In this document: positions 44,300 through 44,687 of the stretch, piece by piece
How positions within the stretch are numbered: position 1 is the first letter of the stretch
Layout: each line of letters starts with the position of its first letter
NCBI GenBank assembly: GCA_964354805.1
Contig: CAYHBD010000042.1
Span: 18,038-82,037 of the forward strand
Direction of reading: 5' to 3'
Source of the DNA: an uncultured archaeon
Lineage (GTDB): Archaea; Iainarchaeota; Iainarchaeia; Iainarchaeales; GCA-2688035
Length of the DNA: 64,000 bases
Notes under the pieces: model-generated
Seen by the model: the letters and a program-made list of their open reading frames with translations, nothing else
Databases searched by the model: none
What the model was told of the DNA's origin: nothing
Made by a program: the position numbers and the translations under genes

Positions 44300-44448
44300 T
44301 GGGGCGTCGAGGATTTGAACCCCGGTCGCTACCATGTTGGAAACCCTGTGTTTTCTTTCTTTTCCACAAGGGCTTTTCTTTCTTTTTCTAAAAGAAAGAA
44401 AAGGGCTTCCCCAAGGTAGAATACTAAACCAAGCTATACTAACGCCCC
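44300..44448 (-). tRNA. tRNA-Pro (anticodon GGG) with a 74-nt intron after position 37
   Basis: Hand fold: GGGGCGT-TA-GTAT-AGCTTGGTTTA-GTAT-T-CTACC-TTGGGG[intron 44335..44408]T-GGTAG-CGAC-CGGGG-TTCAAAT-CCTCG-ACGCCCC-A. CCAA at the 3' end of the intron can pair with UUGG of the loop. Confidence 0.8.
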
Positions 44449-44550
44449 CAACTCGATTTGAATCTTCTGATGCCTGTTTTCTTTTGACACAGCTTTTCAC
44501 GCAAAGCCATTTTCTTTTGGTACAGCTTTTCTTTTCCCAAAAGAAAAGGT

Positions 44551-44687
44551 GTGAGGCTGCCCGGATTTGAACCGGGGTCGTATGCTTGTTTGAAAACACT
44601 TTTTCCCAAGGCTTTTTTCTGCAAGGAAAAAAGGCTTTCCCAAAGCATAAATCCTAGACCAGGCTAGACGACAGCCCCTTGTGCTAT
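44551..44687 (-). tRNA. tRNA-Pro (anticodon UGG) with a 62-nt intron after position 37
   Basis: Hand fold: GGGGCTG-TC-GTCT-AGCCTGGTCTA-GGAT-T-TATGC-TTTGGG[intron 44586..44647]A-GCATA-CGAC-CCCGG-TTCAAAT-CCGGG-CAGCCTC-A. CAAA at the 3' end of the intron can pair with UUUG. Confidence 0.85.

Follow-up and report, generated by a model that had tools for sequence, protein, structure and literature searches.

The locus lies in a window of 64,000 nucleotides, the whole stretch of archaeal DNA that was analysed, and comprises two tRNA-Pro genes on the minus strand, each interrupted by an intron. Both introns carry a copy of a short hairpin element followed by an adaptor at the intron 3' end. The features are as follows.

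44300..44448, minus strand: tRNA-Pro(GGG) gene; exon 1 44448-44409, intron 44408-44335 (74 nt), exon 2 44334-44300 (ARAGORN with introns allowed)
44359..44408, minus strand: diverged core in the Pro(GGG) intron, AAGCCC / UUUUCUUUCUUUU / AGAA / AAAGAAAGAAAA / GCCCUUGUGGAAAAG (from the sequence; covariance hit 44361-44408)
44335..44358, minus strand: Pro(GGG) intron 3' adaptor, a repeat of the A-rich arm followed by GGGUUU (pairing with AAGCCC), CCAA (pairing with exon UUGG at 32-35) and CA
44525..44549, minus strand: degenerate U/A hairpin resembling the element, CCUUUUCUUUUGGGAAAAGAAAAGC, beginning 2 nt past the tRNA-Pro(UGG) 3' end (partial covariance hit, 17.4 bits)
44552..44678, minus strand: tRNA-Pro(UGG) gene; exon 1 44678-44639, intron 44638-44587 (52 nt), exon 2 44586-44552 (BHB finder)
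44600..44637, minus strand: core in the Pro(UGG) intron, AAGCCUUUUUUCCUUGCAGAAAAAAGCCUUGGGAAAAA (covariance model, 54.7 bits, E 1e-12)
44587..44599, minus strand: Pro(UGG) intron 3' adaptor, GUGUUUU (pairing with AAAGC), CAAA (pairing with exon UUUG at 32-35) and CA

Predicted splicing signals of the tRNA-Pro introns

Standard tRNA finders miss genes of this kind: both tRNA-Pro genes are invisible to default ARAGORN and to Rfam at its gathering score, whose sole hit in the window is a tRNA at 14221-14340 and which gives no match overlapping the element. With introns allowed, ARAGORN finds both genes. (Its own boundaries for Pro(UGG) are in the wrong register, with the gene called GGG and an intron of 50 nt, and sites based on the bulge-helix-bulge (BHB) motif were used instead. 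Brute-force deletion combined with ARAGORN was also set aside, being too permissive near anticodon loops and missing multi-intron tRNAs.) Removal of each intron at the BHB-defined sites leaves canonical 75-nt tRNA-Pro(GGG) and tRNA-Pro(UGG) cloverleaves. Both introns had been predicted to follow position 37, and they do; the predicted length of 74 nt is right for GGG, but the UGG intron measures 52 nt rather than 62. The pairings that had been proposed between intron 3' end and anticodon loop are present, and in the right register for a 4-bp central helix, H. In Pro(GGG), H is UUGG:CCAA, the 3' bulge is CA/U (the stroke marking the intron-exon junction) and the inner helix, h', is AAGCCC:GGGUUU; in Pro(UGG), the 3' bulge CA/A lies next to H, UUUG:CAAA. 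Intron-bearing orthologues of tRNA-Pro(UGG) are found in L006 and L092.

The inner helix has the form AAGC(C):(G)GYUU in all cases examined. The 5' bulge is 2-3 nt, the best pairing giving 2 nt and not 3 in several introns, and the BHB is not the minimum-energy fold (for Pro(UGG), -15.5 versus -23.5 kcal/mol). As modelled, the element introns would be relaxed BHB substrates.

A family of dispersed hairpins

The element has a core of ~30-40 nt that reads, 5' to 3', AAGCC / U-rich arm / loop / A-rich arm / GCCUUGGGAAAA. The window holds five strong copies (two of which are the nested pair), one diverged copy in the GGG intron and one weak copy on the plus strand. Those outside tRNA genes are:

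5906..5963, minus strand: core 5926-5963 and hairpin hp2 GUUUUGC-UCU-GCAAAAC, 5906-5922 (covariance model, 57.1 bits)
7812..7876, minus strand: 5'-leader insert of ~65 nt; core 7838-7875 and hp2 CAAUUUU-GGAA-AAAAUUG (60.4 bits)
10849..10902, minus strand: in-frame insert of 54 nt in ileS; core 10865-10902 and hp2 UGCC-UCU-GGCA, 10851-10861 (60.5 bits)
20389..20421, plus strand: diverged copy between convergent ORFs, CAGCC-UUUUCUU-AAAA-AGAAAA-GGCUGGCGAAAA (20.9 bits, E 1e-3)
38533..38614, minus strand: nested pair, the inner copy (38564-38599, 44.6 bits) in the loop of the outer AAGCCUUUUUGC...GCAAAAAGCCUUAGGAAAAAA

The positions originally given for the dispersed repeats (5926-5963, 7838-7875, 10865-10902 and 38533-38614, all on the minus strand) proved accurate. 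The UGG, ileS and 7838 copies are indeed identical at their right-hand ends, but over 19 nt rather than 21, and the single orientation ascribed to all copies holds for the strong ones but not for the diverged copy at 20389-20421. At 5906..5963 the left flank, UGCAAAACAA(AAGCC), recurs after hp2. The nested pair is intergenic and antisense to the plus-strand genes on either side; related loci contain homologues of the two ORFs downstream of it, 38645-39211(+) and 39267-39932(+).

Could the likeness be one of chance among low-complexity U-run/A-run hairpins, with no true family behind it? The arms are indeed of low complexity, and a search for the tail with 2 mismatches gave 15 hits where 8.2 were expected. 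However, the 13-mer GCCTTGGGAAAAA occurs exactly four times in the window, on the minus strand each time, against a chance expectation that we estimate at ~0.002, and the covariance model scores five window copies at 44.6-60.5 bits (E 5e-10 to 3e-14), with 24.5 bits (E 1e-4) for the copy in the Pro(GGG) intron. Furthermore, an exact-pattern scan with 24 specified bases, for which we estimate a chance expectation of ~0.03 over the whole collection, found at least 124 copies in at least 104 stretches from about 28 assemblies, mostly Iainarchaeota metagenome-assembled genomes. Together with the covariation of the hairpin, these results refute chance resemblance, which we regard as having practically no probability. 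The tRNA-Pro introns and the dispersed repeat are one family, as had been claimed, with introns in at least eight validated tRNA species as well as copies outside tRNA genes, and both kinds of consensus search confirm that it is more than a class of generic T/A-run hairpins.

In 34 distinct copies of 36 nt, 98.5% of the hairpin is paired and 44 cells are doubly changed, a result matched by none of 500 shuffles; the stem sequence itself is free to vary from copy to copy. Only one in 136 variable hairpin cells is a G.U pair, so that a palindrome in DNA fits better than selection on RNA. The termini, AAGCC...GCCUU, form an imperfect inverted repeat with an invariant C.C mismatch, and in the predicted fold the tail GCCUU-GGGA-AA pairs with the U-rich arm. 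Nested and tandem arrays are present among the copies listed, and within one genome identical hairpin subfamilies recur with differing neighbouring hairpins. The repeats that flank the copies are variable (~4 to 25 nt) and in part tandem duplications, with no clean, fixed target-site duplication. (The long flank repeats were considered as target-site duplications, but several are tandem duplication units that contain part of a tRNA gene.) The assemblies behind the scan's stretches are nearly all DPANN archaeal or labelled only "archaeon". We read the element as REP/RPE/MITE-like and endemic to DPANN archaea of the Iainarchaeota type, the window organism being such a host.

The element as an intron in other tRNA genes

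Beyond the two genes of the window, eight more element introns restore a cloverleaf when removed, while the candidate in L058 failed. Altogether, excision at the BHB-defined sites gives an intact tRNA in three cases for Pro(UGG) and in one case each for Pro(CGG), Pro(GGG), Gly(GCC), Leu(CAA), Ser(CGA), Ala(GGC) and Thr(GGU). The introns lie at 37/38 and, in the T-loop, at 58/59 and 59/60, those of Ala(GGC) and Thr(GGU) being the T-loop introns; the same core also occurs in Cys, Arg and UAU-anticodon tRNAs. Highly similar intron cores are thus found in non-orthologous tRNA genes at differing positions, as in the transposed intron families of the Thermoproteales. All 15 of the ARAGORN-detected intron copies among those listed are in the sense orientation, and ~30% of the listed copies are in a tRNA or within 200 nt of one.

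In the two window genes and the eight other tRNAs alike, exon positions -6 to -3 can pair with the intron 3' end in a central helix of 4 bp, and a 3-nt bulge containing the 3' splice site follows. The helix changes with the exon (UUUG, UUGG, UUGC, CUCA, CUCG, UUCG, GUUC), and the intron complement changes in step. Exon and intron are complementary in all ten, and the cloverleaf is restored; the element introns are thus probably spliced, as far as sequence can tell. DPANN splicing endonucleases with broadened specificity have been reported (PMC5829648).

The conserved tail CCUUGGG had been interpreted as a mimic of the tRNA-Pro anticodon loop. This is not specifically supported, as the element is also found in unrelated anticodon loops and in T-loops. 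What the tail, GCCUU-GGGA-AA, does share is the format of the intron 3' splice adaptor: an A-run, G(G/C)YUU, 4 nt and 2 nt. The dispersed copies are without the adaptor itself (GGYUU, 4 nt, 2 nt) and have an unrelated local hairpin in its place.

Position and orientation relative to genes

At least 14 copies start precisely at the stop codon native to a full-length gene, and after genes the ratio of sense to antisense is 22:6 among the copies listed. (A crude analysis of orientation against neighbouring ORFs gave no overall bias; the bias is found directly after stop codons.) At least four or five copies start 0-2 nt past a tRNA discriminator base, and the degenerate hairpin at 44525..44549 shares its position class with L012, L022, L063, L069 and L075. 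Other copies lie between convergent genes (L031, and 20389-20421 in the window), and U-runs on both strands adjoin AAG(C/G)C. Copies are also found in coding sequence, in either orientation and some of them in-frame. On one 98-kb contig, seven copies follow each other as +,+,-,+,+,+,-. Replication-strand bias of the IS200/IS605 type was considered and is not supported, given that both strands are used on this contig and that the nested copy in the window runs antisense to the genes beside it.

The stop-codon starts and the sense bias point to a role in the host or to targeting linked to transcription, and away from random selfish insertion. In the first case, the element would be a module marking transcript 3' ends, its hairpin and U-tract acting as a bidirectional terminator or stabiliser that has been duplicated and reused, with the intron role secondary. 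Starts at stop codons and discriminator bases, U-runs on both strands, copies between convergent genes and a sequence conserved across many species would all be explained. On the other hand, a U6-7 terminator would be harmful in tRNA genes and in ileS, where copies are nevertheless found; in a 5' leader, one copy separates the promoter from the start codon; and such a function would have no need of nested copies or long arrays. We therefore think it unlikely as a primary explanation, but it is compatible with mobility, as a later co-option of a mobile element.

Insertions at orthologous sites

The copy in ileS starts in frame at codon 828, after the anticodon-binding domain (Pfam Anticodon_1 ends at residue 820), and the insert encodes approximately KPFLPKQKSLGKKSASGK. 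It is missing from the aligned orthologues in L068 and L061, and the ileS match lengths in L106 and L107 imply that there is no insert there either. Among metagenome relatives of ileS, no clean, closely related element-free site was found; L105 has the element and then diverges. (An exact-protein lookup of the IleRS gave no record.) Splicing of the ileS copy is unsupported, its borders being without BHB complementarity; since the insert is 54 nt long, the reading frame cannot decide between spliced and unspliced. The insert at 7812..7876, which separates an AT-rich, promoter-like stretch from the start codon of the minus-strand gene downstream, is likewise missing from the orthologous site in L068. 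Among tRNA genes, tRNA-Pro(CGG) is intronless in L001 and has an element intron in L079, and the orthologous tRNA(UAU) has an intron in the window that differs from that in L068. In L037, an antisense copy lies within the Pfam match of a lysyl-phosphatidylglycerol synthase-like ORF. Judged from these alignments, there are insertion polymorphisms at orthologous sites, and the element has presumably moved at the DNA level.

How did one element come to be both intron and dispersed repeat?

Two answers had been offered at the outset: a mobile hairpin that is tolerated through splicing, or the spread of intron-derived sequence. In the latter case a BHB intron, perhaps that of tRNA-Pro, would have come first, and the excised linear or circular intron would have spread via RNA, either entering other RNAs through reverse splicing or ligation, or being retro-copied into DNA, which would make the dispersed copies SINE-like. 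The dispersed copies do start exactly at intron nucleotide 1, AAGCC, and the A-rich tail, the variable flank duplications, the strong link to tRNA genes and the sense bias after genes would all suit such a history, as would arrays in which the next copy abuts GCCUUGGG/AAGCC, resembling a Pro exon/intron junction. However, an excised intron would be expected to bring its 3' adaptor along, and the dispersed copies have an unrelated hairpin instead; some of the copies within coding sequence and between genes are antisense; G.U pairs are nearly absent from the hairpin, as suits a DNA palindrome; and no reverse transcriptase was identified in a search that was not systematic. An intron-first origin thus appears quite improbable. 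The mobile hairpin, from which the introns would presumably descend, fits the sequences better, because there are element-free orthologous sites in ileS, the 5' leader and tRNA-Pro(CGG), because copies occur in coding sequence in both orientations, and because dispersed copies are without the adaptor.

We consider it reasonably probable that the element is a non-autonomous hairpin repeat, mobile at the DNA level, that is removed as a BHB intron where it sits in tRNA genes. Copies would survive where harm is small: precisely where genes end, in tandem or nested arrays between genes, as occasional in-frame, translated copies in coding sequence, and in tRNA genes, in the latter only in the sense orientation and with excision from the pre-tRNA. 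The tRNA genes would tolerate the element because it is spliced out. The 5' AAGCC of the element would pair with the GGYUU box near the intron 3' end to form h'; the 4 nt directly after the box, complementary to exon positions -6 to -3, would form H, and another 2 nt would follow. This geometry would place both splice sites in the bulges of a somewhat relaxed BHB, at which the archaeal splicing endonuclease could cut and the RtcB ligase could rejoin the exons, and both window introns appear to follow the design. Several observations speak against the mobile hairpin. Neither a transposase or reverse transcriptase nor an autonomous partner came to light, in an analysis that did not look for them systematically, and the viral contigs scanned contained zero element copies and no such partner; the flank duplications of ~4 to 25 nt are not of a fixed length; the starts on stop codons and the sense bias point away from random insertion; the BHB is not the predicted minimum-energy fold and has a 5' bulge of 2-3 nt; and the sequence is conserved among many species more tightly than is usual for a purely selfish repeat.

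Relation to known systems

A search of the literature found no published description of this element. The closest parallel is the transposed tRNA introns of the Thermoproteales (Fujishima et al. 2010). [quoted passage not shown] The element introns resemble them in being similar, short BHB introns that occupy both types of position in non-orthologous tRNAs. Here, however, the host is a DPANN archaeon of the Iainarchaeota; the core is also a genome-wide repeat, found at stop codons, after tRNA 3' ends, in arrays and, in either orientation, within coding sequence; and it is a covarying hairpin to which a separate short adaptor adds the exon complementarity.

Among bacterial repeats, the Rickettsia palindromic elements (Ogata et al. 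2000) are reportedly short palindromic repeats that lie in-frame in protein-coding genes and are translated. They also occur in RNA genes and intergenic DNA and measure ~100-150 bp; to our knowledge, they have no known transposase and are not removed by RNA splicing. The archaeal element is similarly short, palindromic and in-frame in coding genes as well as present in RNA genes and between genes, but its sequence is unrelated and its host is not a bacterium. REP/BIME (RAYT) and IS200/IS605-derived palindromes are imperfect hairpins of ~35 nt in which a flanking motif and a mismatch are conserved; REPs lie mostly just after genes, often in clusters and with symmetry at the DNA level, and are not known to be introns. 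The palindrome, its approximate length, the conserved flanks and mismatch, the clustering, the frequent position just after genes and the DNA-level symmetry are shared, but the present element also lies inside genes and introns, which is not typical of REPs, has a stem that varies between copies and displays no replication-strand bias on the 98-kb contig. No RAYT or TnpA gene came to light, in an analysis that did not look for them systematically.

In eukaryotes, introners are transposon-derived spliceosomal introns that carry or create splice signals and yield many similar introns. By analogy, the element may be an archaeal counterpart, in which a genome-wide mobile hairpin makes new BHB introns on landing in a tRNA loop and gaining a 4-nt adaptor complementary to the exon, and also marks or targets the exact 3' boundary of genes, a tentative comparison that we find plausible without quite favouring it. 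The likeness would lie in a mobile element with its own splice signals that is removed from RNA and gives rise to many similar introns. Unlike introners, it would depend on a protein endonuclease acting on a BHB and not on the spliceosome, its hosts are tRNA genes and not mRNAs, and its copies in coding sequence appear unspliced.

We know of no source element or mechanism for the gain of archaeal tRNA introns, a question open since "transposition" was inferred in the Thermoproteales. One short element that is the intron body in many tRNAs and also recurs as a dispersed repeat, whose insertions at orthologous sites can be dated, makes this question testable and is a concrete candidate source for the origin and spread of these introns. 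There are also practical consequences: the repeat seems to break or chimerise assemblies, for example in L105, and it flags contigs that have been binned into the wrong genome.

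Copies of the element in the window

The sequences best support a reading in which the element would be a small hairpin repeat, non-autonomous, that moves at the DNA level and is spliced where it lies in tRNAs. On the minus strand of the window it consists of AAGCC, a U-rich arm, a loop, an A-rich arm and then GCCUUGGGAAAA; the 13-mer GCCTTGGGAAAAA occurs there exactly four times, on the minus strand every time. A covariance model trained on 34 distinct copies gave 44.6–60.5 bits for five copies (5926, 7838, 10865, 38564 and 44600) and 24.5 bits for the diverged copy in the Pro(GGG) intron. 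The nested pair at 38533–38614 is antisense relative to the adjacent genes.

Element copies, tRNA-Pro genes and introns in the window
5926–5963, minus: element copy (sequence, covariance model)
7838–7875, minus: element copy with adjacent hairpin (sequence, covariance model)
10865–10902, minus: element copy in ileS (sequence, covariance model)
20389–20421, plus: diverged element copy (covariance model, 20.9 bits)
38564–38599, minus: inner element copy, in the loop of an outer copy spanning 38533–38614
44300–44448, minus: tRNA-Pro(GGG) gene (ARAGORN, introns allowed)
44408–44335, minus: Pro(GGG) intron, 74 nt (bulge-helix-bulge rule)
44551–44678, minus: tRNA-Pro(UGG) gene (ARAGORN, introns allowed)
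44638–44587, minus: Pro(UGG) intron, 52 nt (bulge-helix-bulge rule)
44600–44637, minus: element copy in the Pro(UGG) intron (sequence, covariance model)
Directly past the tRNA-Pro(UGG) 3' end: degenerate hairpin (covariance model, 17.4 bits)

A weak, degenerate element-like sequence at 19948–19987 on the minus strand (AAUUC-UUUUUUC-...-GAAAAAA-GCCAUUGGGCAAA; 15.9 bits, E 0.03) falls within overlapping ORFs and may be an old within-gene copy.

The element as a tRNA intron

Both tRNA-Pro genes go undetected by a default ARAGORN run and by Rfam. Their splice sites were set by the bulge-helix-bulge (BHB) rule, under which a 4-nt helix strand and two bulge bases close the 5' exon, and 4 nt complementary to that strand, then two bases, close the intron. 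The Pro(UGG) intron, originally given as 62 nt, is thereby shortened to 52 nt. The predicted cloverleaves do form on intron removal, both products being canonical 75-nt tRNAs with anticodons GGG and UGG, and the proposed pairings UUGG:CCAA and UUUG:CAAA are present in the correct register for a BHB.

The element also lies within many tRNA genes of the related loci (L-numbered stretches from other assemblies), in the sense orientation in 15 of 15 cases detected by ARAGORN. BHB-defined excision yields ARAGORN-recognisable Pro(UGG) in the window, L006 and L092, Pro(GGG) in the window, Pro(CGG) in L079, Gly(GCC) in L012, Leu(CAA) in L053 and Ser(CGA) in L056; it also yields Ala(GGC) in L095 and Thr(GGU) in L088, where the introns are in the T-loop (59/60 and 58/59, respectively). 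These introns share one plan. The first base is the start of AAGCC or one base upstream; a (G)GYUU box near the 3' end pairs with AAGC(C) as an inner helix, h'; the four bases past the box complement exon positions -6 to -3 as the central helix, H; and two further bases separate the H strand from the 3' splice site. Depending on the exon, H is UUUG, UUGG, UUGC, CUCA, CUCG, UUCG or GUUC, and the intron complement shifts to match; this matched change in exon and intron is covariation over independent sites. The BHB is relaxed, the 5' bulge often having 2 nt in the best pairing, and the fold of lowest energy is a rod, its U-rich arm paired with the tail GGGAAAAAG (for Pro(UGG), -23.5 kcal/mol for the rod vs -15.5 for the BHB). 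Splicing endonucleases of broadened specificity are known from DPANN archaea (PMC5829648).

What, then, is the conserved tail? It was originally taken as a mimic of the anticodon loop. Its format, GCCUU-GGGA-AA, is that of the 3' adaptors of the element introns, and in the Pro(GGG) intron the A-rich arm is duplicated, with the second copy ahead of GGGUUU. Because of these two features, the tail may instead be a 3' splice module, either vestigial or cryptic.

The tRNA at 46899–46987 (plus; 89 nt, anticodon GAU) has an extra arm of 16 nt, AAGCAACUACCUGCUU, in its variable region; it is either an odd long-arm tRNA-Ile or carries a small non-canonical intron starting AAGCA.

Distribution and placement

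A scan of one genome per prokaryotic species, demanding an exact match to AAGCCTTTT-N(4-30)-AAAAGCCTTRGGAAA, found at least 124 copies in at least 104 stretches from at least about 28 assemblies; the matches listed, with the window copies, include at least 98 distinct sequences. These counts are lower bounds and, the pattern being exact, skewed to conserved copies. Nearly all listed matches are from MAGs labelled Candidatus Iainarchaeum/Iainarchaeota (DPANN), another DPANN lineage or simply "archaeon". A few contigs labelled Chloroflexi or Falkowbacteria (L002, L034, L038, L062 and L085) carry archaeal-type intron-bearing tRNAs, with a tRNA gene beside the element in L038 and L062 and a tRNA-gene fragment beside it in L034; these are probably mis-binned Iainarchaeota DNA. 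A scan of viral contigs found no copies. In one MAG, JBAZQI01 (L036, L041, L042, L070, L072 and L104), a second repeat family of ~55 nt, ccaaaacatagaaaagcaa[a/t]agcttttcgtgcctcgtaccctgcagggtactcgg, recurs beside elements.

The evidence is sequence only, most of the genomes are MAGs and gene calls in the related loci are crude. About 30% of the copies listed are within a tRNA gene or at most 200 nt from one, and among the matches listed four or five begin 0–2 nt past the tRNA discriminator base. Copies at most 30 nt behind an ORF of at least 100 codons number 22 on the same strand vs 6 on the opposite strand, again among the matches listed. Absolute strand bias was not found, the copy order on a 98-kb contig being +,+,-,+,+,+,-.

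Of these 22 same-strand copies, 14 overlap or abut a native stop codon, which makes 14 of 130 copies among the matches listed (e.g., L014, L017, L027, L030 and L031; further cases are L033, L041, L042, L081, L089 and others), where well under one exact coincidence was estimated by chance. The junction is T/AAGCC in ten, so that the stop codon is made of the upstream T and the element's two leading A's, TA/AAGCC in three and direct abutment in one. Five of six such ORFs checked against Pfam matched a family (ABC ATPase, radical SAM + SPASM, GT1, ferredoxin and HTH_3), each at full length; in these, therefore, the element sits on the native stop and the gene is not truncated.

The second hairpin that adjoins the core at dispersed copies varies from site to site, with a 3' arm that in several loci is a repeat of the left flank. 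Neighbours in the L004 array have the second hairpin in common, the first differing by compensated changes. In seven loci (L001, L034, L062, L066, L073, L083 and L090) an antisense element directly downstream of a tRNA gene abuts a 13–25-nt duplicate of the tRNA's T-loop-to-3'-end segment, often along with an inverted partial copy of it; in L073 a 91-nt unit is repeated in tandem at least twice.

Evidence for insertion

In the IleRS of the window an insert of 18 residues coincides exactly with the element and lies directly past the anticodon-binding domain; its 54 nt are the core plus a second hairpin, UGCC-UCU-GGCA. The insert is absent from the orthologues in L068 (62% identity) and L061 (52%), and match lengths imply an ileS without it in L106 and L107. 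Since a BHB was looked for at the ileS element and none was found, the insert is presumably translated. Checked by eye, this copy has no stop codons in any of six reading frames, which may be one reason why in-frame insertions in coding sequence can survive in both orientations. An antisense in-frame copy lies within the Pfam match of a lysyl-phosphatidylglycerol synthase-like ORF in L037. In L105 (metagenome contig Ga0315275_10129907, about 1530–1560), the ileS of a close relative (89% amino-acid identity) matches the window across the left junction and the first hairpin and then switches to unrelated sequence; either the DNA was rearranged at the repeat or the assembly is chimeric.

Other sites are also occupied in one genome and empty in another. 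The window is syntenic with the Iainarchaeum contigs L068 and L006 at 68–83% nucleotide identity, which places its DNA in their lineage. The 7838–7875 copy and its neighbouring hairpin form a ~65-nt insertion between a promoter-like AT-rich region and a start codon, missing at the orthologous site in L068. tRNA-Pro(CGG) is intronless in L001 and has an element intron in L079. The window tRNA with anticodon UAU (14221–14340, minus; ARAGORN "Ile-tat"; Rfam tRNA, 58.4 bits) has a 48-nt intron at 37/38 without the element, and its L068 orthologue (5667–5926, minus) has a 186-nt intron that is an element array. The 48-nt intron includes a C-box-like GUGAUGAG. Identical hairpin subfamilies are repeated within single genomes (e.g., UUUUUUCCUACGGGAAAAAA at five sites of one MAG), the neighbouring second hairpins being wholly different; such recurrence is apparently recent spread.

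Hairpin constraint and mode of movement

At the four variable base pairs of the hairpin, UA, CG, GC and AU all occur, and 98.5% of cells are paired; 44 cells are doubly changed, a number reached by none of 500 shuffles. Only one of 136 variable cells is G.U, and a C.C mismatch close to the hairpin base is invariant. Helix h' of the intron form, unlike the hairpin, does use G.U. The symmetry of the hairpin suggests that the DNA palindrome is constrained, or that one arm is copied from the other, and not that selection acts on an RNA alone.

The near-absence of G.U pairs likewise weakens an RNA-first origin, in which excised introns would be copied back into the genome, as do the existence of antisense copies and the lack of the 3' adaptor in dispersed copies. 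A hairpin repeat would instead move at the DNA level; tRNA genes would tolerate it, since a BHB can be made with it and the insert then spliced out, and elsewhere it would persist at gene boundaries, in arrays and now and then as an in-frame part of a protein. Such a mobile repeat could plausibly also have a secondary role at transcript 3' ends, the two being compatible. Which of the two, repeat or intron, descends from the other is inferred.

Comparison with known systems

The in-frame coding copies resemble Rickettsia palindromic elements, the hairpin with conserved flanks resembles REP elements, and the overall logic is that of eukaryotic introners. The definitions of a classical MITE and of the REP/RAYT system fit the element in part or not at all, so it is filed under neither. 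Rfam has no family that it matches, and a full-text literature search found no account of it or of tRNA-intron repeats in Iainarchaeota/Diapherotrites. The closest precedent is in Thermoproteales, where intron "transposition" has been inferred (Fujishima 2010, via the reviews PMC4090602 and PMC10714607). The two reviews mention no dispersed non-tRNA counterpart of the Thermoproteales introns; what the two systems have in common is that unrelated tRNAs carry similar introns where a BHB can form.
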